A DNA stretch of 64,000 nucleotides, from the NCBI GenBank assembly GCA_964360335.1, contig CAYHVH010000001.1, forward strand, positions 23,426-87,425, written 5' to 3'. Shown one piece after another: positions 9,380-48,270 of the stretch; the first letter of the stretch is position 1; the number at the start of each line of letters is the position of its first letter. The notes under the pieces were generated by a model. That model had not been told where the DNA came from. It made no database searches and saw only the letters and a program-made list of their open reading frames with translations. The position numbers and the translations under genes are program-made. The DNA comes from an uncultured Candidatus Saccharibacteria bacterium. Lineage in GTDB: Bacteria; Patescibacteriota; Doudnabacteria; UBA920; 2-01-FULL-46-14.

Positions 9380-11050
9380 CTATTCCTCCGTCACCCGCCA
9401 GACTTCAGGGAGATCGGTAATTCCCTCCAAGGCCTTCAAGATCCCGTCCTGCTGCATAGTCAGCATCCCGGATGCGACCGCCGCTTTTTTGATTTCCAGA
9501 GTCGAGGCCTGTTGAAAAATCAGGCTTTCGATTTTTTCGTCCACGGCAAAGACCTCAAAGGCCCCGATGCGGCCCCGGTAGCCCAAATCATGGCACTCCG
9601 GACAGCCTCTGCTATGATAAAAAATTAGGTGCTCTGGTACGGTTACCGCCGCCTGGGGAGGAATTCGGGAAAGGGCAAGTTTAACCTGCTGCAGTTCCTC
9701 ACTACCGGGCCGGTAGGGCTCCTTGCAGTGCGGACAAATTTTCCGCAACAAGCGCTGGGCAATCAGGGCATTCAGAGCGGGAGCTAAGGTTACCGGCTTT
9801 ACTCCCAAATCCAAGAGCCGGGGAATGGCCCCAGCCGCGTCATTGGTATGCAGGGTGGAGAGCACGACATGGCCGGTCAGGGCGGCTTGGCTCGCGGTTT
9901 CGGCCGTTTCGTAATCGCGGATTTCTCCAACCATGACAATATCAGGATCCTGCCGGAGAATCGACCGCAGACCACTGGCAAAATCTACGCCGCTCGTGTG
10001 GTCAATCGGCGTCTGAACGATACCCTCCAACTGGTACTCCACCGGATCCTCCAGGGTAATAATTTTCACTCCGGGTTTGTTGAGGTGATTTAAAAAGGAA
10101 TATAAGGTCGTGGTTTTCCCCGAACCAGTCGGCCCGGTCGTCAAAGTCATGCCGTTGGGTTTTTTTAGTTCATGATTCACCACCTTCAGAGCCTGACCGT
10201 GCAACCCCAGTTTTTCGATGTCCAAGCCCACCTCCTGCATCCCCAAAATTCTCATCACTACAGACTCGCCGTGCGCCGAGGGCAACACCGAAACCCGAAT
10301 TTCCAAATTTCGCTCCGGCAACTTCACGGTAAATCTGCCGTCTTGGGCGACCGCCGTGACGTTAAGCTTCAGATTCGACAAAAGTTTGATCCGGGAAAGC
10401 AAAGAGTGTTGCAGACCGAGTGGAAAATCCAAAATTTCCGCCAATACCCCGTCCACCCGAAACCGGACCTTGAGTTGAGTTTTTTCCGGCTCGAGATGGA
10501 CATCCGAGGCCCGCATGATGATAGCCGCGCCAAGCATCAAGCCCACAAGCTCACTCGCAGAAATCGAGAGCAGGGATTCCCCCAAAGTCGGCAGGGCCTT
10601 GAATTTCTCCAGGACTTCCCGGCCGAGGGTTACCGCGACCTCGTGTTTGAGCGACAAAAAGGCGGGCAGAATTTTCTTGTACTGTTGCAGAGCGGCCGCG
10701 AGGGCCGTGCGCGCAACCAAATAAATCTGAACTTGGAATTTCCGCTTGGCCAATTGGGCGAGCAGAAGCTTGAGGCTCGGGTTTTGCGGTTCGGTAATTG
10801 CAACCTTCAGGAGCAAGCCGTCTTTGAAGAATGGCACGGCCGCGGCGGCAACGGCTTGTTCATACGGCACCAAATCCAAAGCCTCCTCGTCAATTGGTAG
10901 GCCCATGAGGTCAAAATATGGAAGAGAAAGAGCGGCGGCACGCCGTTGCGCTTCCTGCTCCTCGAACTTCCGATTGAGATCAGTGAAAACCCGCTGTACT
11001 CCCGCCCCGCCGTCCGGGGCCGGGACGTGTTTGCCTACTCCCGGAGCCAT
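9380..11050 (-). CDS. Type II secretion / type IV pilus assembly ATPase (GspE/PilB family)
   Basis: 556 aa. Walker A GPTGSGKTTT, GspE N-terminal domain, and a C-terminal CxxC...CxxC zinc motif (CPHC...CPEC). Confidence 0.85.
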   Translation of the reverse strand: MAPGVGKHVPAPDGGAGVQRVFTDLNRKFEEQEAQRRAAALSLPYFDLMGLPIDEEALDLVPYEQAVAAAAVPFFKDGLLLKVAITEPQNPSLKLLLAQLAKRKFQVQIYLVARTALAAALQQYKKILPAFLSLKHEVAVTLGREVLEKFKALPTLGESLLSISASELVGLMLGAAIIMRASDVHLEPEKTQLKVRFRVDGVLAEILDFPLGLQHSLLSRIKLLSNLKLNVTAVAQDGRFTVKLPERNLEIRVSVLPSAHGESVVMRILGMQEVGLDIEKLGLHGQALKVVNHELKKPNGMTLTTGPTGSGKTTTLYSFLNHLNKPGVKIITLEDPVEYQLEGIVQTPIDHTSGVDFASGLRSILRQDPDIVMVGEIRDYETAETASQAALTGHVVLSTLHTNDAAGAIPRLLDLGVKPVTLAPALNALIAQRLLRKICPHCKEPYRPGSEELQQVKLALSRIPPQAAVTVPEHLIFYHSRGCPECHDLGYRGRIGAFEVFAVDEKIESLIFQQASTLEIKKAAVASGMLTMQQDGILKALEGITDLPEVWRVTEE

Positions 11051-11113: not shown

Positions 11114-12286
11114 CTAGACCACGATTTGCGCCCGGAGTTTCTGCAATTTTTCCAGGACGTCTTTCTCCACCTCCAAGAGGCTTTGCCCCTGAACCCGGAA
11201 GGTGCCAAGCGAGCCGTTGAGCATTTGGCCGGCGAGAGCGGCCGTAACCACCTGGGCCTTGATGCTGGGATGGAGATGAAAATAGCCGACGATCTCCTGT
11301 CCGTTGACTTCTGCCAAAAACAAAATGATTTTTCGTCCCGCCAAGTTCGCCACCAGCTCCTTCATCACGCCGTAAATATCGTCCGGACTGGCGCCCGCCT
11401 TCTCTAAATCGGTAGCGGTCACCAAAGAATAGGTCAAACCCAATTCTTCTACCTCGCGCACCCGCGCCAAGGCGCGTCCCCAAAGTTTGAGAAGGGAAAT
11501 GTTCTTGGTCTTGTAGAGTTCCCGGATAATCTCCTGGTGCTTGCCGCCCTGGGCGATGAGGTTACTGGCCTTCAAAAAGGCCCGGGGGGTAGTTTTGACA
11601 TGCTGAAAACTGTTGGTCTCCACAATGATGCCGGTCAAAAGATTTGTGGCGATTGCCTCGTCAATCAAGCCAGCTTCGAAATTCTCCAGCAAACTCACTA
11701 AAATCTCCGAGGTGGCGGTCGCCGTCAAATCCACCAGATTGATCTCCCCATAATGCTCGTTGTTGGGGTGGTGATCGATGTTGATAATGGCCGTTTCAAA
11801 AAACAGGTCAGTGTTTTTCTCGTAGATCTGGCCCAAGTGCTCCAGAGAAGGGGTATCCAAAGTGACAATCAAATCATAAGGAAATTTTGCGTTGCGGAAA
11901 GAGACATCCTGGGGCGTAAACTTGCCGTCTTTCGGTTTCAGAAAAATATCCACCCGCTCAGGTTCCACCTCGTAGGAAAGCTCGTCCAGATGCGCGGCGG
12001 TGGTCTTTAAGGAAATAACAAAGCTTTGGAAAACCTGGAGATCTTTTTTAAGCTCTTCGATACCGGACAGAAAACCAAAAGGACTCAAATTGCTGGCCGC
12101 ACAAACAATCTCCGGGTTCTTTTCCAATTTTTTAAAAAAAGCAAATAAGGCCAAACCCGCTCCTAAGGCGTCGCCGTTGGGGTTCTGCGGCAAAGCCAGG
12201 AGGATCCGGTTTGCTTTGCCAATCGCGTCAATGACTTGTTTTTCGATTTGTTCTACCACAGTTGTTCTGTCATAAAAAATCGTCAA
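11114..12286 (-). CDS. DHH/DHHA1-family phosphoesterase (NrnA-like nanoRNase / pAp phosphatase)
   Basis: 390 aa. DHH motif (NIDHHPNNE) and a C-terminal DHHA1 domain. Confidence 0.7.
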   Translation of the reverse strand: MTIFYDRTTVVEQIEKQVIDAIGKANRILLALPQNPNGDALGAGLALFAFFKKLEKNPEIVCAASNLSPFGFLSGIEELKKDLQVFQSFVISLKTTAAHLDELSYEVEPERVDIFLKPKDGKFTPQDVSFRNAKFPYDLIVTLDTPSLEHLGQIYEKNTDLFFETAIINIDHHPNNEHYGEINLVDLTATATSEILVSLLENFEAGLIDEAIATNLLTGIIVETNSFQHVKTTPRAFLKASNLIAQGGKHQEIIRELYKTKNISLLKLWGRALARVREVEELGLTYSLVTATDLEKAGASPDDIYGVMKELVANLAGRKIILFLAEVNGQEIVGYFHLHPSIKAQVVTAALAGQMLNGSLGTFRVQGQSLLEVEKDVLEKLQKLRAQIVV

Positions 12287-23997: not shown

Positions 23998-24235
23998 TGA
24001 CCTTCAGAATTTTTGCCTCATGGAGCCGGAGTTCATTGGCCATCACGGCGCTTCGGGTTTTGACGGTGAGGGTTTTTTTCTGGAGACTGACTGGCCTGAT
24101 CGCCTCGGATTCGGGGATCAAATTTTTTATTTCCGCCCGATAGAGATCGAAAATTCGCACGATTTCCAGCTGCCGCGAAAGCTCGTCTTTGCGGCTGAAT
24201 TTGCCCTGGAGCGTTTCCCCTAATTTTTTAAACAT
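23945..24235 (-). CDS. DUF721 (DciA-like) protein downstream of recF
   Basis: 96 aa. Conserved position after recF in the dnaA-dnaN-recF cluster. Confidence 0.55.
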   Translation of the reverse strand: MFKKLGETLQGKFSRKDELSRQLEIVRIFDLYRAEIKNLIPESEAIRPVSLQKKTLTVKTRSAVMANELRLHEAKILKVINQTVGHQAVKRVIYRF

Positions 24236-25358
24236 TTATCGCGGTCGAAGTTACTGCTCCCTGATTGACGGCATAGACCTGCGCCCTTTTCGGCAAAAAA
24301 TCCTGAACCTCTTCGAGATGAATAGTAGTGAGAAATACCTGTTTCAGGATGGACAAAAAGCCGGTTAATTTTTTCTGGTGCTCAAAATCAAACTCGGAAA
24401 AGATATCATCCAAAAGCATGATTGGGGATTCTCCGGTTTGCTCCTCCAGATATTGCTTTTCCGTAAACTTTAGCGCCAGGGTCAAGCTCCGCATCTGCCC
24501 ACGAGAAACAAACCCAACCACGTCCTTGCCCTGAAGCAGGGTCGCAAAGTCATCGCGGTGCGGCCCGAGAAGAGTGGTACCGCGCTGCCGTTCGGTTTGG
24601 CGCAAACTGCGAAGCTTTTCGAGAAATTCCTGCTTGTTCACCGCTCCAGACATACGATAAACAAACTTCACTTCCGTAAGTTCGGGGGATAGGGAAGCGA
24701 TAATGGCGGGAAGGGAAGCGTTCAAATATTTTAAGAGGTTGTCTCGGTGCTGACAGATGAGGCTGCCAAACTCCGCCAATTTTTCATCCCAAATGTCCAT
24801 CTCTGGAAGCCCGAGTTTTTCATCATCGATACGCTCCCGGCCTTGACCGGAAATCTTTTGCCAGAGCTCATTGCGCTGCCGTAAACTTTTTTCATACTGC
24901 TGTTGAGCATATCGATATTGCCGAGTACCGAGCGACAGGGTTTCGCTTAGAAACCGCCGCCGGTTGCTAGGGGACCGCGTTAAGATATTCAAGTCCTGGG
25001 GCACGAAACTGACAATGGGCAGGATCCCGGCATACTTGCTGCGCGGTGTTTCTTGGCCATTAACTTTGAGTTTGTAAATTGGCCGTGTCTCTCTATATTC
25101 TGCGTAAACCTCCTGAACGACCGGTTCCCGGTTTTCCAACTCTATTTTTGCGCGCAAAAAATTTCGCCCTTCCAAAAACAACTGCCCAAATTTGCTTTCG
25201 GGAAACTTTCGCAGCGTGCTCCCGAAATATATACCCTCCAAAAAATTGGTTTTTCCGGCACCATTCGGCCCCGTTAAAACTACAAAGCCCTGATCGAGAT
25301 GCAAATCAAGGCTTTGAAAGTTTCGAAAGTTTTGGAATAGGAGCCGGGCAATATGCAT
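24228..25358 (-). CDS. recF: DNA replication and repair protein RecF
   Basis: 376 aa. Walker A GPNGAGKTN and the SMC-like signature. Confidence 0.9.
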   Translation of the reverse strand: MHIARLLFQNFRNFQSLDLHLDQGFVVLTGPNGAGKTNFLEGIYFGSTLRKFPESKFGQLFLEGRNFLRAKIELENREPVVQEVYAEYRETRPIYKLKVNGQETPRSKYAGILPIVSFVPQDLNILTRSPSNRRRFLSETLSLGTRQYRYAQQQYEKSLRQRNELWQKISGQGRERIDDEKLGLPEMDIWDEKLAEFGSLICQHRDNLLKYLNASLPAIIASLSPELTEVKFVYRMSGAVNKQEFLEKLRSLRQTERQRGTTLLGPHRDDFATLLQGKDVVGFVSRGQMRSLTLALKFTEKQYLEEQTGESPIMLLDDIFSEFDFEHQKKLTGFLSILKQVFLTTIHLEEVQDFLPKRAQVYAVNQGAVTSTAINV

Positions 25359-25360
25359 TT

Positions 25361-26455
25361 TCAGATCTTGATCGGCATGACGATATAGAGGTAGTTGTCC
25401 CTCCCTGCCGGTACCAAGGCCGCAGGAGACGAAGAGTTGATGACTCTTAAAGAAACCTGCTCGTCTGGTAAATTATTCAGGCACTCCAGGAGATAGCGGT
25501 AGTTGAAAACTGCCGCATTTTTTTCGCCCGTTAATTCCCCGAACAGGCGAATTTCGCTCCCTCCCACCTGGACCGCTTGGGACTTGATTACCACCTGCTT
25601 CCCTGGCGGATTGAGTTCCAGCTCAATGTTGTTGGTGTCCCCGGCGAAAAGGCTTGCCGCCTTCAAAGCCTGTACAAATTCGCCCCGCTTGAGCTCTGCC
25701 TGGGTTGTGAAGTTTTGAGGGACTATCTGTTTGTAATCTGGATACTGGCCCTCGATCAGACGCGAAATAAGTTCAACCTCCTCGGTTCTCAAACAAATTT
25801 GCCCTTCCTTGAGAAAGACCTCGATTGTTCCCTCCCCCATGCTTCTACTTGCTTCATTGACGGCGCGGGTTGGGACAATCACCTGGCGGTTGCTACCCAC
25901 CTCTTCCCCAAGTGGGATTTTTACTTCTGCCAAGCGGTAGCGGTCGGTGGTAGCCAGGGTTAGCCCTTTCCCCTCAAAACTAAACAACACCCCAGAAATT
26001 TCCGGCTGGGTTTCGGAAAAGGCCGCGGCAAATCCTACCTCCCCAACTCCTTCCCGAAGCGCTTTCCCTGAGAGTTTGGTATAAACCCCGCCTTCCCCCC
26101 CGGGAATGAGGGGAAAGTCTTCTACCCCCAAGCCGTTGATATGAGTTTTGGCGTTTTCCCCTTCCAGCAACAGGTCGGTTTTTTCTGTGGAGATAGTGAG
26201 CTTTTCCGTTAGCAAATTAGCCACGAGTTCGTTGAGTAATTTCGCCGGTACCGTAAGCTCCCCGTCTTCTACTACTTTCCCCCCCACCCAAGTATTAACC
26301 GCCATCTCTAGATTTGTGGTGGTGAGTTTGAGGCGACCCTTCTCTGTGCGGAGCAAAATATTGTTGAGAATGGGTAGGGCGTTCCCTCCCCCAATAATCC
26401 GCGAGCAGATCTGTAAGCCAGCATTGAGGTTTTTTTTTGTACACTGCATTTTCAT
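25361..26455 (-). CDS. dnaN: DNA polymerase III beta sliding clamp
   Basis: 364 aa, three-domain clamp architecture, immediately downstream of dnaA. Confidence 0.9.
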   Translation of the reverse strand: MKMQCTKKNLNAGLQICSRIIGGGNALPILNNILLRTEKGRLKLTTTNLEMAVNTWVGGKVVEDGELTVPAKLLNELVANLLTEKLTISTEKTDLLLEGENAKTHINGLGVEDFPLIPGGEGGVYTKLSGKALREGVGEVGFAAAFSETQPEISGVLFSFEGKGLTLATTDRYRLAEVKIPLGEEVGSNRQVIVPTRAVNEASRSMGEGTIEVFLKEGQICLRTEEVELISRLIEGQYPDYKQIVPQNFTTQAELKRGEFVQALKAASLFAGDTNNIELELNPPGKQVVIKSQAVQVGGSEIRLFGELTGEKNAAVFNYRYLLECLNNLPDEQVSLRVINSSSPAALVPAGRDNYLYIVMPIKI

Positions 26456-26499
26456 AAAAGTGATTGTTTCTAAAGAAGAAGTTTTAGTAAGGAGTAATT

Positions 26500-26660
26500 A
26501 TAGTAATTGCTGGGGGAATGTGGGAAAGGGGGAGATTCTGCTGCTAGCGCCCGTCCCCAGTTCGCGGCCGGTGGGGAAGGTGGTGACAGGGGTGGGGAGA
26601 GATTGGGGGGGAAGGAAACAAGGACAGGATCTTTCCCCCAATCCCCCCACAGTTAATCCA
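26500..26660. repeat. G-run-rich palindromic spacer between dnaA and dnaN (GGGGA/TCCCC hairpins), possibly related to family A
   Basis: GATTGGGGGGGAAGG...CTTTCCCCCAATCCCCCC (roughly 13-bp stem), plus GTCCCCAG...GGTGGGGAAGG and GGGGTGGGGAGAG. Confidence 0.4.
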
Positions 26661-28017
26661 TATAGATTCGGTTGGTAATCAGGCTTATTTCATGTTTGAG
26701 GGCTTCCTTTTCCTTTCCTACCCTTTGGACTTTGTCAATGGCGTGGATGACTGTGGTGTGGTCGCGCCCGCCGAAAATTTCCCCTATCATCGGTAGACTG
26801 GTCTCGAGTTCTTTCCTGATAATATACATCGCCACCTGGCGGGGGAGGACGTACTCTTTTTTGCGGGATTGTTTGACGAGGTCGTCAATTGTCACATTGT
26901 AGAAGTCCGCCACGACCTCCATAATTTTTTTTGCCGAGGCCATCCGTTTTTTTGGAGGGAAAACAATGTTGGCAAGGATATTTTTCACCTTGTCCAAGGT
27001 TGGGGAGGTGTTGTTGAGCTGACAAAAAACCATCAGGCGGTTAAGCGAGCCCTCGAGTTCGCGAATGTTAGTCTCCACGGTTTGGGCAATATACTCAAGC
27101 ACCCCTGGCCCAACATCGTAACCTCGCTCTTTGGCTTTTGAGCGCAAGATTGCAAGCCGAGTTTCGAAGTCCGGCGGCTGGACGTCTGCAATCATCCCCC
27201 ATTCAAAGCGGGAAACCAGCCGCTCTTCAATGGCAGGGATTTCCTTTGGTAAACGGTCCGAAGATAGCACTATTTGTTTGTTGATTTGATGTAAGGCGTT
27301 GAAGGTGTGAAAAAATTCTTCCTGGGTTTGTTCCTTGCCTGCCAAAAATTGTACGTCATCGATGAGGAGGACGTCTACCCCCCGATAGAGATTTTTAAAA
27401 GTTTCCCCTTTGTTGTAGCGAACCGCTTGAATGAATTCATTGGTAAATTTTTCCGTGGTGACATACAAAACTTGCTTGGCCACCCCACTATTTAAAAAAT
27501 CATTCCCGATCGCCTGCAGGAGGTGGGTTTTTCCCAGACCGACCCCGCCGTAAATGAACAACGGGTTGTAAGCCCTTCCCGGATTTTTGGTTACTCCCTG
27601 AGCGGCGGCAACGGCCAATTCGTTGTTGCCACCAACAATAAAGTTCAAGAAAGTGTATTTTGGGTTAAGCCCCGTGCTGAGGGAGGAAGACTTGACGGTT
27701 GGGGTATGTTCGGGCGAAGCGGGAAGTGACACAATCCTGGGAGGAGGTTCGGCCGCCCGGCGGTTATAGCCACCGGTAATTTGGTATTCGATTTGTTTGA
27801 TTTCGGGGTTAACAGCGCGGATAGCCCGCAGAATTGCCTGATGGAACTTGTTCATCAGCCATTCTTTGGTAAAGGCGTTGGGCACACCAATAACCACTTT
27901 TCCCGAACTTTGTTCCAAAATTGCGGTGTTTTTAAACCAGGTGGTGAAGCTCGCCTTGGACAGGGAGAGCTCAAGGTTTCCCAGAACCGCCTGCCAGATT
28001 TGTTTAGTGGAGTTCAC
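26653..28017 (-). CDS. dnaA: Chromosomal replication initiator DnaA
   Basis: AAA+ motifs (GGVGLGKTHLL, LIDDVQF) and a C-terminal DnaA-box-binding domain. The real N-terminus (IWQAVLGNLELSLSKASFTTWF) implies a GTG start near 28017. The longer ORF extension to 28233 is rejected. Confidence 0.85.
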   Translation of the reverse strand: MNSTKQIWQAVLGNLELSLSKASFTTWFKNTAILEQSSGKVVIGVPNAFTKEWLMNKFHQAILRAIRAVNPEIKQIEYQITGGYNRRAAEPPPRIVSLPASPEHTPTVKSSSLSTGLNPKYTFLNFIVGGNNELAVAAAQGVTKNPGRAYNPLFIYGGVGLGKTHLLQAIGNDFLNSGVAKQVLYVTTEKFTNEFIQAVRYNKGETFKNLYRGVDVLLIDDVQFLAGKEQTQEEFFHTFNALHQINKQIVLSSDRLPKEIPAIEERLVSRFEWGMIADVQPPDFETRLAILRSKAKERGYDVGPGVLEYIAQTVETNIRELEGSLNRLMVFCQLNNTSPTLDKVKNILANIVFPPKKRMASAKKIMEVVADFYNVTIDDLVKQSRKKEYVLPRQVAMYIIRKELETSLPMIGEIFGGRDHTTVIHAIDKVQRVGKEKEALKHEISLITNRIYMD

Positions 28018-28211
28018 TTTTGTACCCCATTCTTTTTGCTTATGTTTTTCCCTTGCTGCTATTCTAACAGAATGGTTATCAACATGTAAAATAATAGGAA
28101 ATCCCCAGGAATAAGCCAAAAAAAGGATTGTATGTGGATAGGGTGTGTAAAACCAGTGCATCAAATTTTTGAATTGGCCAAATTCGATTTGGGAAGGTAT
28201 AATTAGAAAAG
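28018..28211. promoter_or_regulatory. AT-rich dnaA/rpmH divergent intergenic region with DnaA-box-like 9-mers (candidate oriC / dnaA promoter)
   Basis: TTATCAACA and TGTGGATAG are each one mismatch from the TTATCCACA box. The region is AT-rich. Confidence 0.4.
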
Positions 28212-38786: not shown

Positions 38787-38862
38787 TGGTGGGCCAGGAT
38801 GGATTCGAACCATCGACCCCGGCTTTATAAGAGCCGTGCTCTAACCGCTGAGCTACTGGCCC
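38787..38862 (-). tRNA. tRNA-Ile with anticodon UAU (CCA encoded)
   Basis: GGGCCAGTAGCTCAGCGGTTAGAGCACGGCTCTTATAAAGCCGGGGTCGATGGTTCGAATCCATCCTGGCCCACCA. Clean cloverleaf. Anticodon loop is CTTATAA. Overall similarity to tRNA-Ile. Confidence 0.75.
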
Positions 38863-43894: not shown

Positions 43895-44572
43895 TTAGAG
43901 GATACGAATGCGAATGATTACCGCTAACGATATTATTATTCCAATGACCAGAAAAGCAATCAGAGCGAAGTACCAAAATCGCGCCCGAGCTTGGCTGACC
44001 ACCACGTATTTCTTTTCCACCTCCTCGATGAGTTTGGGAATTTCGGTTTCCTCAGTCAGAGACGGACGAGGTTTGATCGGCTCCAGTGGATTGGTAAGAG
44101 ATTTGAGGATGTCGTATTTGGAAACCACCCCGACTAAGGTTTTAAAGTCATCAACTACCGGCAGCAGATCTTCATGGCGAAGTAAAAAGGCCTCTGCCGC
44201 TTTTTCCAAGCTGGTATTGGATACCAGGTACAGCGGCTCGCGGTTCATCACGTCGGAGGCTTTGAGTTTGTACAGGGCTTTGAGTTTTTTGTCTACCGTC
44301 GTGAGGTCTTCTCCGTGGATCATGTGGAGATTAGCCAGCAGATTGATCGCGGTCGGCAAATAGATGCCTTTGGAATCCAGGAGTTCTTTCATGGTAATCA
44401 TTCCCCGTAATTTGCCATCTTTGTCCACTACCGGCACGCCGTTAAAATTTTTCTCGAGCATAGCCTTGGCCACGTCCAAAACATTGTCCTCGGCCTGGGC
44501 CGCCAGGATTTTCGTGGTCATAATCTCTTTGACTTGGATTTCCGAGAGACCTTTGGGCATTGCTAAGCACAT
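43895..44572 (-). CDS. CBS-pair domain protein with a C-terminal TM anchor
   Basis: Two CBS motifs and a C-terminal hydrophobic helix. Confidence 0.7.
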   Translation of the reverse strand: MCLAMPKGLSEIQVKEIMTTKILAAQAEDNVLDVAKAMLEKNFNGVPVVDKDGKLRGMITMKELLDSKGIYLPTAINLLANLHMIHGEDLTTVDKKLKALYKLKASDVMNREPLYLVSNTSLEKAAEAFLLRHEDLLPVVDDFKTLVGVVSKYDILKSLTNPLEPIKPRPSLTEETEIPKLIEEVEKKYVVVSQARARFWYFALIAFLVIGIIISLAVIIRIRIL

Positions 44573-44737
44573 TATATAGTGTTGCCCTCACCACCCGCAA
44601 ACTTTATAATTATCCTGCTGGCCTGGTAGCTCGTACCTTCGGTAGATGCCCCGCAGGGGCACAAGTGGCCCCGAAGAACAGCATAGCTCTGTCTACGGGG
44701 TAAATAAGGGAGCGGTCTGCTGCCCGCCACAGCCTGA

Positions 44738-44808
44738 GGCGTGATGGCCGAGTAGTTAGGCAGAGGTCTGCAAAACCTCTCACACGGGTGCAAATCCCGT
44801 TCACGCCT
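44738..44808 (+). tRNA. tRNA-Cys (GCA)
   Basis: GGCGTGA/TCACGCC acceptor, anticodon loop CTGCAAA, discriminator U. The D-arm and T-loop (TGCAAAT) are somewhat atypical. Confidence 0.6.
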
Positions 44809-44878
44809 GAGGCGATGGCAGGCGGGCAAAACCGCTTGACAACAGGTGCGATTCCCGTCCGGCCTTTTAGTGGAACGA

Positions 44879-44966
44879 GCCGAGGTGGTGAAACCGGCAG
44901 ACACTAGGGACTTAAAATCCCTTGGGGGAATACCCCGTGCGGGTTCGAATCCCGCCCTCGGCACCA
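44879..44966 (+). tRNA. tRNA-Leu (UAA), type II with a long variable arm; CCA encoded
   Basis: GCCGAGG...CCTCGGC acceptor, anticodon loop CTTAAAA, variable hairpin GGGGGAATACCCC, T-arm GCGGGTTCGAATCCCGC. Confidence 0.85.
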
Positions 44967-45053
44967 GATGAGAGTTCCCCAGAACCGGGTTTTTTTAGGA
45001 AATCCGTGACCCGAAAGGGATTGAGGATTTAGCCTCTGACGTATTATTTTTTT

Positions 45054-45383
45054 ATGTCAATTGCAATTACTTTTGAAGAATTTAAAAAATTAGACCTGCG
45101 TATCGCGCTTGTGGTTGAAGCGACTCCGGTGGAGGGCTCGGAAAAACTCGTAAAACTCAAAATCGACACCGGCGACGGCGAGCGGCTACTTGTGGCGGGC
45201 ATTGCGCAATATTATGCTCCCGAAGAATTGGTCGGCCGTCGCATTGTGCTGGTGGCAAACTTGGAACCGAAAATTTTCATGGGCGTTGAAAGCCAGGGGA
45301 TGTTGCTCGCGGCCGAAGGCCCCGAGGGGCCGGTGCTTTTAATGCCGGATCGCGAAGTTCCGCCCGGTTCCCGAATCCGCTAG
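45054..45383 (+). CDS. tRNA-binding domain protein (CsaA/Trbp111-like, Myf domain)
   Basis: LDLRIALVVEATPVEGSEKLVKLKIDTGDGERLLVAGIAQYY. Confidence 0.75.
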   Translation: MSIAITFEEFKKLDLRIALVVEATPVEGSEKLVKLKIDTGDGERLLVAGIAQYYAPEELVGRRIVLVANLEPKIFMGVESQGMLLAAEGPEGPVLLMPDREVPPGSRIR

Positions 45384-45393
45384 GCGCCACACT

Positions 45394-45422
45394 TGACGAA
45401 AAGTCCAAAATCAGGTAAGATA
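45394..45422 (+). promoter_or_regulatory. Sigma-70-like promoter TTGACG-N17-TAAGAT driving a ~170-nt structured leader that ends in a GCAGGTTTCGCCACCTG plus T6 terminator/attenuator
   Basis: Read directly. The leader contains a TCCCGACTTGTCGGGA hairpin and a CGCGTC...GACGCG helix. Confidence 0.5.
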
Positions 45423-45590
45423 GAGTGCTAACTAAATAATGTGAGCTGTGAAGCGCGTCGAATTGGTCACCTTCCCGACTTGTCGGGATAAGACGCGTGG
45501 AGCTTTAGGGTGAAACCGGCACTCGTATTTTGCAGAGCAGGTTTCGCCACCTGTTTTTTAGTTAGCGCAACAACCAAACAGGAGGCGAAG

Positions 45591-46145
45591 ATGTGGTGGA
45601 AAAAACCGCGGTGGTTTTTCACAGGGTTATACTTGGTATTCGTTGAGGTCTTTATTCACGGCCGGGATGTCCGCGAGGGGTATTCTAAAGATATTCTGTC
45701 CGGACTTTATAATCAGCGGGCTATTCTAGAACTTGCAGTTCGAGCATTAGCGGATGCTAGGCGCGTCGGCAAATGGCTTGCGGTCGTGCACATTGATCTT
45801 GATCACTTCAAAGCCTACAATGACCAGTTTGGTCATTTACGGGGCAACGAAGTGATTCGGCAGTTTGGTCGAATCTTGACTTCTGGCTTGCGGCCGACGG
45901 ATTGGGCTGGCAGATTTGGCGGAGACGAATTTCTGCTGATTCTCCCCGGCGCCGATCCTTATGAGGCCAGCTGTGTAGTACAGAGGCTTAAGCAACTTGG
46001 TCCTCAAATTCCCTTCAGCTTTGGGGTACACAGTGAGCTTGTGATGCGAGGAAGCCAAGTCACGCTCGAGCATTTTATCGAGCGGGCAGACCAAGAAATG
46101 TACGCTCATAAACGGTCCAAGCAACAATTCGCAGTCCAAGTGTAA
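45591..46145 (+). CDS. GGDEF-domain diguanylate cyclase (single N-terminal TM helix)
   Basis: RFGGDEFLLIL active-site motif. AGGAGG SD precedes the ATG at about 45591. Confidence 0.8.
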   Translation: MWWKKPRWFFTGLYLVFVEVFIHGRDVREGYSKDILSGLYNQRAILELAVRALADARRVGKWLAVVHIDLDHFKAYNDQFGHLRGNEVIRQFGRILTSGLRPTDWAGRFGGDEFLLILPGADPYEASCVVQRLKQLGPQIPFSFGVHSELVMRGSQVTLEHFIERADQEMYAHKRSKQQFAVQV

Positions 46146-46212
46146 GTGGTCTTCCGGCCGGAAAGGTGCAAACCTTTCCGGCCGCGTTTTTTTTCGATAT
46201 AATTGCAATACT

Positions 46213-48270
46213 ATGGCTGACCTTGTGAAACTCAAAGAACTCGCCAGGCTCGTTCGTTACTATATTCTGGTCTCGACCACGGCCGCGGGGTCCGGGCACC
46301 CAACATCTTCGCTGTCTGGCGTGGAACTGATGACGGCATTGATGTTTGGCGGCTATTTTCGCTTTGACTTGAATCGTCTGGGATACGCAAACAATGACCG
46401 GCTGATTTTCTCCAAAGGCCATGCCTCGCCCCTCTTCTATGCGCTGTGGGCAGCGGCTGGCGCGCTGACGGAAAAAGAGCTTTTGACTTTGCGCAAATTT
46501 GGCAGCCCTTTGGAGGGGCATCCTACCCCGGCATTTCCCTATACCGAAGCGGCGACAGGCTCTTTGGGACAAGGGTTGTCAATTGGCGTGGGCATGGCCC
46601 TTAATGCCAAGCTTGACCGGCTTCCCTATCGCACTTATGTGCTTTTGGGGGACAGTGAAATGGCCGAGGGCTCGCAATGGGAGGCGATTCAGCTCGCCGC
46701 GTACTATAAACTTGATAATTTGGTCGGCGTTCTCGATGTCAATCGTTTGGGTCAACGAGGGCAGACGATTTACGGGCATGATATTAAAGCTTATCAGAAA
46801 CGCATCGCGGCGTTCGGGTGGAAGACTATAGTCGTGAATGGGCATAATTTGAATGAGATTTTGAAAGCGTACAAACAGGCGACCCCCTCTTCATCTCCCC
46901 CTATCCCGTTTGACGGGACAGGGGGAGAAAAGAGAGGGGGTGGAAGGCCGGTGATGATCATTGCCAAAACCATTAAAGGTAAAGGAGTTTCATTTATCGA
47001 AAACAAAGAAGGCTGGCATGGGAAGGCGCTTTCCCCGGAGGATTTGAGGAAGGCACTACGAGAATTGGGGAAAGTCGACAAGAAGATGCGAGGAGAGATG
47101 GCAAAGCCGGAGAGAATTAGTAGACCGGAGACAGTAGATAGTAGATCGGAAAGCAAAGAAAAAATTAATTACAAAATCGGAGAAGAGGCGGCAACAAGGA
47201 AGGCTTACGGTAACGCCCTAGTCAGGATTTATCCGAAGTTTCCGAATATCGTAGTCCTCGACGCCGAGGTTTCCAATTCAACTTACGCGGAGATATTCAA
47301 GGAAAAATATCCGGACCGGTTTTTGGAGATGTTTGTGGCGGAGCAGAATATGGTGGGTGCGGCTCTTGGTCTTTCGCGGCGCGGCAAGATCCCGTTTGTT
47401 TCGACCTTTGCCGCGTTCCTGACGCGCGCTTTTGACCAAATCCGAATGAGCCAGTATTCGGCCGCCAACATCAAGTTTGTGGGCTCGCACGCCGGGGTGT
47501 CCATCGGCGAGGACGGGCCGTCGCAGATGGGCCTCGAGGATTTGGCAATGTTTCGCAGTATTTTAGGAAGCGTGGTTTTGTATCCTTCGGATGCGGTTTC
47601 AACCGATAAGCTTGTGGAAGCGGCAGCTAAGCACAAAGGCATTGTCTATATCAGAACAACGCGAATGGAAACCCCGGTGCTTTATTCCCCGGGGCAGGAG
47701 TTCAAAATCGGCGGGAGTAAAGTTTTGCGCCATAGCCGGAAAGACGTGGCGACAGTGCTGGCGGCCGGGATAACATTGCATGAAGCGTTGGCCGCTTATG
47801 AAGAACTCAAGAAGCAAGGGGTTTTGATTCGGGTGATTGACTTGTACAGCATCAAACCGATTGATAAAAAGACATTGACGCAGGCTGCCAAAGAAACGGG
47901 AGCGATAATCACGGTCGAGGACCATTATCCCGAGGGCGGGATTGGGGAAGCGATTAGAAGCGCTCTTTCTGACCTCCCTCCCCAAAGCATGGGGAGGGAT
48001 AAAGGGAGAGGTTTTCCGCCAGCCCGCCCCGCTTCGCTTGGCGAGGCCGGGGAGGCGGATCCGCCTTGGGCAGAGAAACTCCCTGGTAAAACCGACCTCT
48101 CTCCTTCTCTCCCCATCACCTGGGGAGAGGGTAGGATTATCTCTTTAGCGGTGCGCAAAATGCCGCGAAGCGGCAAACCGCAGGAGCTTTTGGATTATGA
48201 AGAGATATCGCGCGATGCTATTATTAAGGAAGTAAAGAGAATTGTTTCTAAATCGTCACCTCGAATTTAA
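46213..48270 (+). CDS. tkt: Transketolase (full length) carrying 2-3 in-frame repeat insertions
   Basis: ThDP-binding motifs (GHPTPAF..., LLGDSEMAEGSQWEA), pyrimidine-binding and C-terminal domains. 685 aa. Confidence 0.9.
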   Translation: MADLVKLKELARLVRYYILVSTTAAGSGHPTSSLSGVELMTALMFGGYFRFDLNRLGYANNDRLIFSKGHASPLFYALWAAAGALTEKELLTLRKFGSPLEGHPTPAFPYTEAATGSLGQGLSIGVGMALNAKLDRLPYRTYVLLGDSEMAEGSQWEAIQLAAYYKLDNLVGVLDVNRLGQRGQTIYGHDIKAYQKRIAAFGWKTIVVNGHNLNEILKAYKQATPSSSPPIPFDGTGGEKRGGGRPVMIIAKTIKGKGVSFIENKEGWHGKALSPEDLRKALRELGKVDKKMRGEMAKPERISRPETVDSRSESKEKINYKIGEEAATRKAYGNALVRIYPKFPNIVVLDAEVSNSTYAEIFKEKYPDRFLEMFVAEQNMVGAALGLSRRGKIPFVSTFAAFLTRAFDQIRMSQYSAANIKFVGSHAGVSIGEDGPSQMGLEDLAMFRSILGSVVLYPSDAVSTDKLVEAAAKHKGIVYIRTTRMETPVLYSPGQEFKIGGSKVLRHSRKDVATVLAAGITLHEALAAYEELKKQGVLIRVIDLYSIKPIDKKTLTQAAKETGAIITVEDHYPEGGIGEAIRSALSDLPPQSMGRDKGRGFPPARPASLGEAGEADPPWAEKLPGKTDLSPSLPITWGEGRIISLAVRKMPRSGKPQELLDYEEISRDAIIKEVKRIVSKSSPRI
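46880..46945. repeat. Family-A-type nested palindrome in frame in tkt
   Basis: CGACCCCCTCTTCATCTCCCCCTATCCCGTTTGACGGGACAGGGGGAGAAAAGAGAGGGGGTGG. Encodes TPSSSPPIPFDGTGGEKRGGG. Confidence 0.65.
47970..48140. repeat. Composite family-A insertion (three palindromic units, ~171 bp) in frame in the tkt C-terminal domain
   Basis: TGACCTCCCTCCCCAAAGCATGGGGAGGGATAAAGGGAGAGG ... GGCGGATCCGCC ... CCGACCTCTCTCCTTCTCTCCCCATCACCTGGGGAGAGGG. Encodes a 57-aa loop. Confidence 0.7.

Follow-up and report, generated by a model that had tools for sequence, protein, structure and literature searches.

A candidate class II c-di-GMP riboswitch of divergent form in the leader of a stand-alone diguanylate cyclase gene of a Doudnabacteria genome

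Class II riboswitches for cyclic di-GMP (c-di-GMP; Rfam family RF01786) were reportedly described by Lee et al. in 2010, and their crystal structure (3Q3Z) is said to have been determined by Smith et al. in 2011. Two class II variants with altered conserved nucleotides, c-di-GMP-II-GAG and c-di-GMP-II-GCG, reportedly come from the motif survey of Weinberg et al. in 2017. Riboswitches of the other class, c-di-GMP-I, are often located upstream of GGDEF/EAL genes. In Clostridioides difficile, they mostly function as OFF switches (PMC6200980). The riboswitches and second-messenger circuits of the Candidate Phyla Radiation (CPR, or Patescibacteria) have hardly been charted, and our literature search found no paper linking CPR, c-di-GMP, and riboswitches. 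Here, we analyzed a 64,000-nucleotide (nt) stretch of contig CAYHVH010000001.1 (hereafter, the window), whose host is a CPR bacterium, as its GyrA is 79–83% identical to proteins named Candidatus Doudnabacteria. Comparison of sequences suggests, with a probability that we estimate at about 0.55, that the leader of a small diguanylate cyclase (GGDEF) gene in this window is a divergent class II c-di-GMP riboswitch, most likely acting as an OFF switch on a one-gene operon.

A permissive Rfam scan aligned RF01786 with positions 45434–45530 over the entire model (positions 1–84 of 84; 26.9 bits, E = 0.0058), at a score below the gathering score of the family. All features of the leader are on the forward strand. 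The helices of this c-di-GMP-II-type aptamer are held in all orthologs: P1 is formed by 45434–45438/45526–45530 together with 45441–45443/45520–45522, P2a by 45444–45446/45502–45504, and P2b by 45453–45459/45492–45498, the last two showing compensatory changes. An inverted-repeat search returned the CGCGTC/GACGCG hairpin of P2b at 45454–45459/45492–45497. The sequence also carries a kink-turn signature, AGC-UGU-GA opposite GGA-GCU, consisting of a 3-bp stem, a 3-nt bulge, and tandem G-A/A-G pairs, in which the UGU bulge plus GA (45447–45451) faces GGA (45499–45501); among the 122 canonical members, 121 have this G and 119 have this A. In the P2 loop, UUGG-UCACC (45463–45471) is perfectly complementary to GGUGA-AA-CCGG (45509–45519) once the AA bulge is left aside, giving a pseudoknot of nine pairs, two of them G-U. 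The 3′ strand, which includes the AACCGG core, is invariant in all orthologs, and the complementarity is independent of the covariance model, as the RF01786 model contains no pseudoknot.

The N-N′ pair of the pseudoknot is U-A in the window versus G-C in the Rfam consensus (GGGCAC/GUGC). In a pattern search of species-representative genomes, the pairing of UGGUCACC with GGUGAAACCGG was found at at least 119 genomic loci, when about three would be expected by chance according to our own estimate, and the hosts of these U-A loci include Thermomicrobiales, Dehalococcoidales, Binatia, Actinomycetota, Halanaerobiales, and CPR2. Twenty of the loci were scanned with Rfam; all had RF01786 as best match, 13 of them at or above the gathering score. 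The U-A version is thus an ordinary class II aptamer, and the aptamer of the window is related to it but divergent.

Two or three canonical class II aptamers were observed within a few kb at L057 (3274–3358), L013, L020, L071, L082, L084, and L110, and in some of these multi-aptamer genomes the units look tandem or repeated. Neither the window nor the related Doudnabacteria loci yielded a further copy of the aptamer core. The sole other occurrence of GGTGAAACCGG, an 11-mer from the pseudoknot strand, is 600 nt upstream, at 44887–44897 in the D-arm region of a tRNA-Leu gene, which looks like a coincidence. At E ≤ 10, the Rfam scan of 44500–46500 returned only two tRNAs, the c-di-GMP-II match, and noise, and in the whole window only tRNA families reached their gathering scores. 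A T-box or leader-peptide identity of the leader was rejected, no such signature being present.

The GGDEF protein has a single close relative (89% identity), encoded by L001, a contig of 763 nt in which the 3′ half of the leader is present. The next GGDEF protein match, P0004, was discarded as an ortholog on account of its unrelated two-component context. Three other loci (L122, L123, and L134) were found independently, through synteny with the downstream transketolase gene, and present the same order of tRNA-binding gene, leader, and small GGDEF gene; a further leader type, L124, came from a metagenome scan. RF01786 aligned over its full length with the leaders of the orthologs, at sub-threshold scores of 33.0, 33.2, 38.6, and 38.6 bits. 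The low scores of the clade are mainly explained by an inserted hairpin, a weak and interrupted P1, and changes at the junctions.

The leaders are 67–97% identical at the nucleotide level, whereas the GGDEF proteins are 29–56% identical; for L123 and L134, the values are 97% and 56%, respectively. Every helix can form in every ortholog when pairing is examined sequence by sequence. In a five-row MAFFT alignment (A1), 91.4% of the cells were paired versus 31–41% when the partners were slid, and the covariation score exceeded those of all 500 shuffles. Five pairs are changed on both sides in this alignment: one in P2a, one in P2b, and three in the inserted hairpin. In A1, the GUG of P1 and the GCGAA block are out of register, so that helix 3 scores only 40%, and the explicit per-sequence pairing was used for P1 and for the sequestor described below. 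The leader RNA is under strong purifying selection, even though it falls below the Rfam threshold. An earlier sequence-only reading of this stretch had seen a riboswitch-type leader on the GGDEF gene, had listed c-di-GMP among its candidate ligands, and had called for an Rfam scan and a covariation search, adding that a leader not conserved in relatives would count against it. The full-length, albeit sub-threshold, match to c-di-GMP-II, the compensatory changes in the leaders of syntenic relatives, and the conservation of the leader all favor that proposal.

Downstream of the aptamer, a switching segment (45537–45559) contains the 3′ strand of an anti-sequestor, a terminator-like hairpin followed by six U residues (U6), and the 5′ strands of a sequestor of the Shine–Dalgarno sequence. 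Within it, the 17 nt from 45540 to 45556 have three mutually exclusive partners. In the anti-sequestor (or antiterminator), GGUGAAACC (45509–45517) pairs with GGUUUCGCC (45540–45548) in a duplex of about −18.8 kcal/mol; the platform overlaps the aptamer here, the 3′ strand of the pseudoknot also being the 5′ strand of this duplex. The anti-sequestor belongs to the unconstrained optimum, with a probability of 0.97 in the window (four leader types were folded, and three of them gave 0.97–0.999), and its strands are invariant in the orthologs, although the search pattern that yielded L124 had required them. The second structure is the hairpin GCAGGU-UUCGCC-ACCUGU (45537–45554; arms 45537–45542/45549–45554), which runs into U6 at 45554–45559 and whose homologs are conserved in all orthologs. 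In the third, the sequestor, UUUCGCC (45542–45548) and CCUGUUU (45550–45556) pair with AAACAGG (45576–45582) and GGCGAAG (45584–45590), which enclose the Shine–Dalgarno sequence AGGAGG (45580–45585). This 7+7-bp hairpin (−18.6 kcal/mol) corresponds to an inverted repeat of 21 nt with 81% complementarity. Each of the six sequences has such a hairpin, at −12.7 to −19.4 kcal/mol, and covariation is seen in its outer pairs, which are UU/AA in the window, CG/CU in L123, and UG/UG in L124. The Shine–Dalgarno helix is thus conserved and shares one strand (45542–45548) with the partner of the aptamer, as would be expected from a translational platform.

The ligand-bound state was approximated by holo-like folds, in which the strands of the pseudoknot were withheld from pairing. 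Under these conditions, the terminator-like hairpin formed in the window, L122, and L124. The sequestor was the optimum in L123, L134, and L124, and lay 1.9–2.8 kcal/mol above the optimum in the window and L122; in these two, the optimum combined a helix of the 5′ end (P0, see below) with the hairpin and left the Shine–Dalgarno sequence open.

These data are consistent with the following scheme. Without ligand, GGUGAAACC would pair with the segment at 45540–45548, leaving the Shine–Dalgarno sequence open and the small hairpin blocked, and the cyclase would be made. With c-di-GMP, GGUGAAACCGG would be held in the pseudoknot and the segment 45540–45556 released; as the ligand-bound pseudoknot uses the strand that would otherwise occupy the segment, both possible read-outs predict repression. 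During transcription, and in the subclade of the window only, the GCAGGU/ACCUGU hairpin and U6 may cause premature termination. In the full-length RNA, the segment may pair with AAACAGG-A-GGCGAAG and bury the Shine–Dalgarno sequence. Either outcome would lower the amount of cyclase, that is, provide homeostatic negative feedback, to which the RxxD site of the enzyme could add a second layer (in the translation, RPTD lies five residues upstream of an intact GGDEF motif). If c-di-GMP binds in the manner proposed, UUGGUCACC and GGUGAAACCGG are the strands expected to be protected.

Several observations weigh against a c-di-GMP-responsive OFF switch. The first ones concern the aptamer. Its score of 26.9 bits is half of the gathering score of 53.5 bits, so that the Rfam threshold is not reached, and the comparison relies on only four distinct full-length leader types, one near-duplicate, and fragments. 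The unpaired A between P1 and P2a, which is found in 104 of the 122 canonical members, is missing in the window, L122, and L001. The strand that follows P2a reads UUAGG in the window and L122 and UGAGG in L001, instead of the canonical A-R-U-G (A in 120 and U in 111 of the 122 members); the UUAGG of the window contains AG, off the canonical register, and 3 of the 122 canonical members are also without the U. In 3Q3Z, according to a review (PMC7288161), the ligand is contacted by A13, A14, U37, G39, U60, A61, and C68–A74, and according to our own mapping the changes at the P1/P2a junction and after P2a would touch A13 and A61.

For this reason, we considered that the aptamers of the window, L122, and L001 might have a remodeled pocket for another ligand, such as pGpG, another cyclic dinucleotide, or a guanine nucleotide. 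The deviating strands contact the ligand in the crystal structure on that mapping, and the deviations are conserved within the subclade. Against this stand the intact AACCGG core and pseudoknot; on our mapping, the core lines the ligand pocket in canonical members. Within its Rfam clan, RF01786 is still the family that matches best, and the regulated gene makes the enzyme that produces c-di-GMP. Furthermore, the P1/P2a junction has 0 nt in the window and L122, where its sequence is identical, and 3 nt in L124, but the canonical single A in L123 and L134; the strand after P2a is AAGG in L124 and AAGUG in L123 and L134, which thus retain both the canonical A and A-G-U. Because these two sequences keep the canonical letters at the same locus and with the same platform, we infer that c-di-GMP would be the ligand of the whole clade. 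Another ligand appears unlikely; if it were real, a CPR bacterium with a minimal genome would have its cyclase linked to another node of nucleotide signaling.

Another departure of the clade from canonical class II is the inserted hairpin mentioned above, which we call P3 (UCCCGAC-UU-GUCGGGA, 45473–45488; arms 45473–45479/45482–45488). It is located between the 5′ strand of the pseudoknot and the 3′ strand of P2b, and the Infernal alignment shows an 18-nt insertion at this point. In the clade, the extra element inside the pseudoknot loop amounts to 12–16 nt (16 nt in the window) plus UAA. Relative to L122 (GUCCGAU/AUCGGAC), three pairs of P3 are changed on both sides. An insertion at this site was found in none of the riboswitch-like matches (about 38–43 nt) of the pattern search, and we read four longer matches, of unrelated sequence, as chance hits.

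A second group of unfavorable observations concerns the platform. The terminator-like hairpin is weak (five Watson–Crick pairs and one G-U pair, −6.4 kcal/mol). A terminator-consensus scan does not list it in the window, but does list the homologous site of L122, and U6 is present only in the window, L122, and L001, being absent from L123, L134, and L124. In L122, the unconstrained ensemble already favors the hairpin (P = 0.75). More generally, the thermodynamic folds differ between orthologs, and they ignore the pseudoknot, the ligand, and folding kinetics. Lastly, the four characterized class II switches of C. difficile are ON switches (PMC6200980).

In line with these observations, the same aptamer might act as a purely translational OFF switch, in which U6 pairs with AAA upstream of the Shine–Dalgarno sequence and with UAAA near the 5′ end, and no terminator is involved. 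The sequestor is found in all six sequences, when the U-tract is found in only three; at −18.6 kcal/mol it is far more stable than the hairpin, which the scan did not flag in the window, and all six U residues are paired in some predicted full-length fold. However, a 5–6-bp stem containing G and C followed by six U residues corresponds to the minimal definition of an intrinsic terminator, the L122 site was flagged, and the holo-like optimum of the window and L122, with its open Shine–Dalgarno sequence, would repress only with termination. A purely translational switch is therefore a possible, though less probable, explanation. Termination, if it occurs, would be an addition of the subclade to a translational mechanism shared by the clade. 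The sequence-only reading had taken an intrinsic terminator about 40 nt before the Shine–Dalgarno sequence as the expression platform. Its position agrees with our data, since the hairpin starts 43 nt before AGGAGG and the U-tract ends 20 nt before it; its weakness and its restriction to one subclade do not fit that role as well, and the stronger, universally conserved sequestor had been overlooked. Of the elements proposed in that reading, we place the least trust in the terminator.

The polarity itself could also be reversed. In such an ON switch, the ligand would let the hairpin capture ACCUGU, which otherwise would block the Shine–Dalgarno sequence. ACCUGU(UU) is indeed complementary to both CAGGU and (AA)ACAGG; besides the behavior of the characterized members, 68 of 120 canonical members have ON-type terminators, with a terminator arm starting inside the 3′ end of the aptamer. 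Nevertheless, the sequestor also uses UUUCGCC (45542–45548), and these nucleotides become available only once GGUGAAACC is held by the aptamer, in the ligand-bound state, so that the ligand would strengthen sequestration rather than weaken it. The hairpin is, moreover, three times weaker than the sequestor and carries a U-tract in this subclade. An ON switch thus seems very unlikely. A translational ON model, with the hairpin shielding the Shine–Dalgarno sequence from ACCUGU, had been considered and was dropped after the inverted-repeat search had revealed the use of UUUCGCC by the sequestor.

The 5′ end of the leader can form an additional helix, P0, between GUGCUAACUAAA (45425–45436; core GCUAAC, 45427–45432) and UUUAGUUAGCGC (45557–45568; core GUUAGC, 45561–45566). 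It comprises 12 bp in the window and is part of the minimum-free-energy fold. The 6-bp core is invariant in five orthologs and thus shows no covariation. As the 3′ strand of P0 is located in the loop of the Shine–Dalgarno sequestor, the two helices are mutually exclusive in nested folds. Our guesses are that P0 protects the 5′ end or locks the ON state.

The position of P0 at the extreme 5′ end, reminiscent of a stability element, and the sub-threshold Rfam score could also be taken to mean that the leader senses no metabolite at all and is an aptamer-like structure, or a relic, involved in protein binding, RNase processing, or mRNA stability. This is hard to reconcile with the full-length model alignments obtained for all orthologs, a pseudoknot complementarity that owes nothing to the covariance model, the kink-turn signature and compensatory changes, and a leader whose conservation greatly exceeds that of the coding sequence. 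Nor did any other Rfam family match, and we consider this explanation highly improbable.

The proposed OFF switch would belong to a short transcription unit with a single gene. The stretch 45384–45590 (207 nt) is the exact intergenic gap between a gene encoding a tRNA-binding domain (45054–45383) and the GGDEF gene (45591–46145; ATG at 45591–45593, stop at 46145), which encodes a stand-alone protein of 184 amino acids (Pfam PF00990, E = 6e-29). A sigma-70-type promoter is located at 45393–45421, with TTGACG as −35 (45393–45398), N17, and TAAGAT as −10 (45416–45421). Its hexamers match 9 of 12 consensus positions, and matches of equal quality are not rare locally (three in 2.2 kb versus 1.6 expected). 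The hexamer positions are the same across five orthologous leaders (TTGACA-N17-TAAGAT, TAATAT, or TACAAT), and the distance from the −10 hexamer to GCUAAC is 5 nt in every orthologous leader. Transcription would probably start near 45427, giving a leader of about 164 nt (45427–45590), whose fold is more stable than that of shuffled sequence (z = −2.54; 3 of 200 shuffles were equally good). The unit is closed by a strong intrinsic terminator (46155–46194; 13-bp stem and U8, −26.5 kcal/mol), so that a promoter, a single gene, and a terminator make up a one-gene GGDEF unit.

The promoter, the hairpins, the terminator-like hairpin with its U-run, and AGGAGG were all found where the sequence-only reading had placed them, and its estimate of a structured leader of about 170 nt is close to ours. 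Describing the promoter as near-consensus was generous.

L135 (2653–4944) and L136 (2654–4989) belong to two relatives with a transketolase of 67% identity, and in both the transketolase gene comes immediately after the tRNA-binding gene. The cassette being absent there, the promoter–riboswitch–GGDEF–terminator unit behaves as an insertable or deletable cassette. At three loci retrieved by GyrA synteny (L137, L138, and L139), no cassette was found near gyrA.

Other features of the window were noted. A T2SSE-type II/IV secretion ATPase with an N-terminal Pfam MshEN domain (E = 1.7e-11) and an adjoining DHH-family phosphoesterase are encoded on the reverse strand (9380–11050 and 11114–12286). 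MshEN domains can bind c-di-GMP in other bacteria; on visual inspection, RLGxx...Q, which we take to be the c-di-GMP-binding motif of MshEN, is missing from the first 150 residues of the ATPase. Within the same signaling circuit, the ATPase could serve as an effector and the phosphoesterase could degrade nucleotides. A cluster of dnaA, dnaN, and a recF-like (SMC_N) gene is located at 24228–28233 on the reverse strand, and the cumulative GC-skew minimum at about 24–32 kb; this region is probably the chromosomal replication origin. ARAGORN predicted a tRNA-Ile with an encoded TAT anticodon (38787–38862, reverse strand), an uncommon feature since most bacteria read AUA by means of a lysidine-modified CAU tRNA. 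The transketolase open reading frame downstream of the cassette (46213–48270, forward strand) encodes 685 amino acids, compared to 610–660 for its homologs, which may reflect insertions in the protein or a true start located downstream of the first ATG. Among the homologs of GyrA, a Doudnabacteria-like protein of 1283 amino acids (P0211) contains additional PF14528 and PF14890 domains, presumably intein and homing-endonuclease families, and its gyrA gene may contain an intein.

If the proposed reading holds, a bacterium with a reduced genome would let a second messenger act directly on the synthesis of the enzyme that makes it, with a predicted polarity opposite to that of the characterized class II switches, and standard annotation would have overlooked a version of a known riboswitch class that is specific to one clade. 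Natural tests of what the class II pocket tolerates are offered by the inserted hairpin and by a junction that varies between 0, 1, and 3 nt. With three partners competing for the same 17 nt, the platform would also be compact, and it could control transcription as well as translation.

Compared to known systems, the leader resembles RF01786 in the succession and predicted geometry of its elements (P1, P2a, a kink-turn with a 3-nt bulge and GA/GGA, and P2b), in the pseudoknot between the P2-loop UGGNCACC and GGUGN′AACCGG with its AACCGG core, in its location in a 5′ leader, in its link to c-di-GMP biology, and in the alignment over the full model. It differs from RF01786 in having an extra 16-nt hairpin and UAA between the pseudoknot 5′ strand and P2b and, in the window, in lacking the unpaired A between P1 and P2a and reading UUAGG in place of A-R-U-G. 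A further difference is its host, a CPR bacterium. The c-di-GMP-I riboswitch (GEMM-I, RF01051) likewise senses c-di-GMP but has an unrelated fold, and it gave no match to the leader at E ≤ 10. The variants c-di-GMP-II-GAG and c-di-GMP-II-GCG, which belong to the same clan (CL00127), have altered conserved nucleotides, and the leader of the window deviates as well, at junction positions. At any given site, the Rfam tool reports a single family per clan, the one with the highest score, and this was RF01786 in the window and in all orthologs. The arrangement of the platform also sets the leader apart from canonical class II: the terminator-like hairpin is separate from the aptamer, an anti-sequestor intervenes, and a Shine–Dalgarno sequestor is added, which together predict an OFF switch, whereas a terminator arm that begins within the aptamer follows an ON logic.

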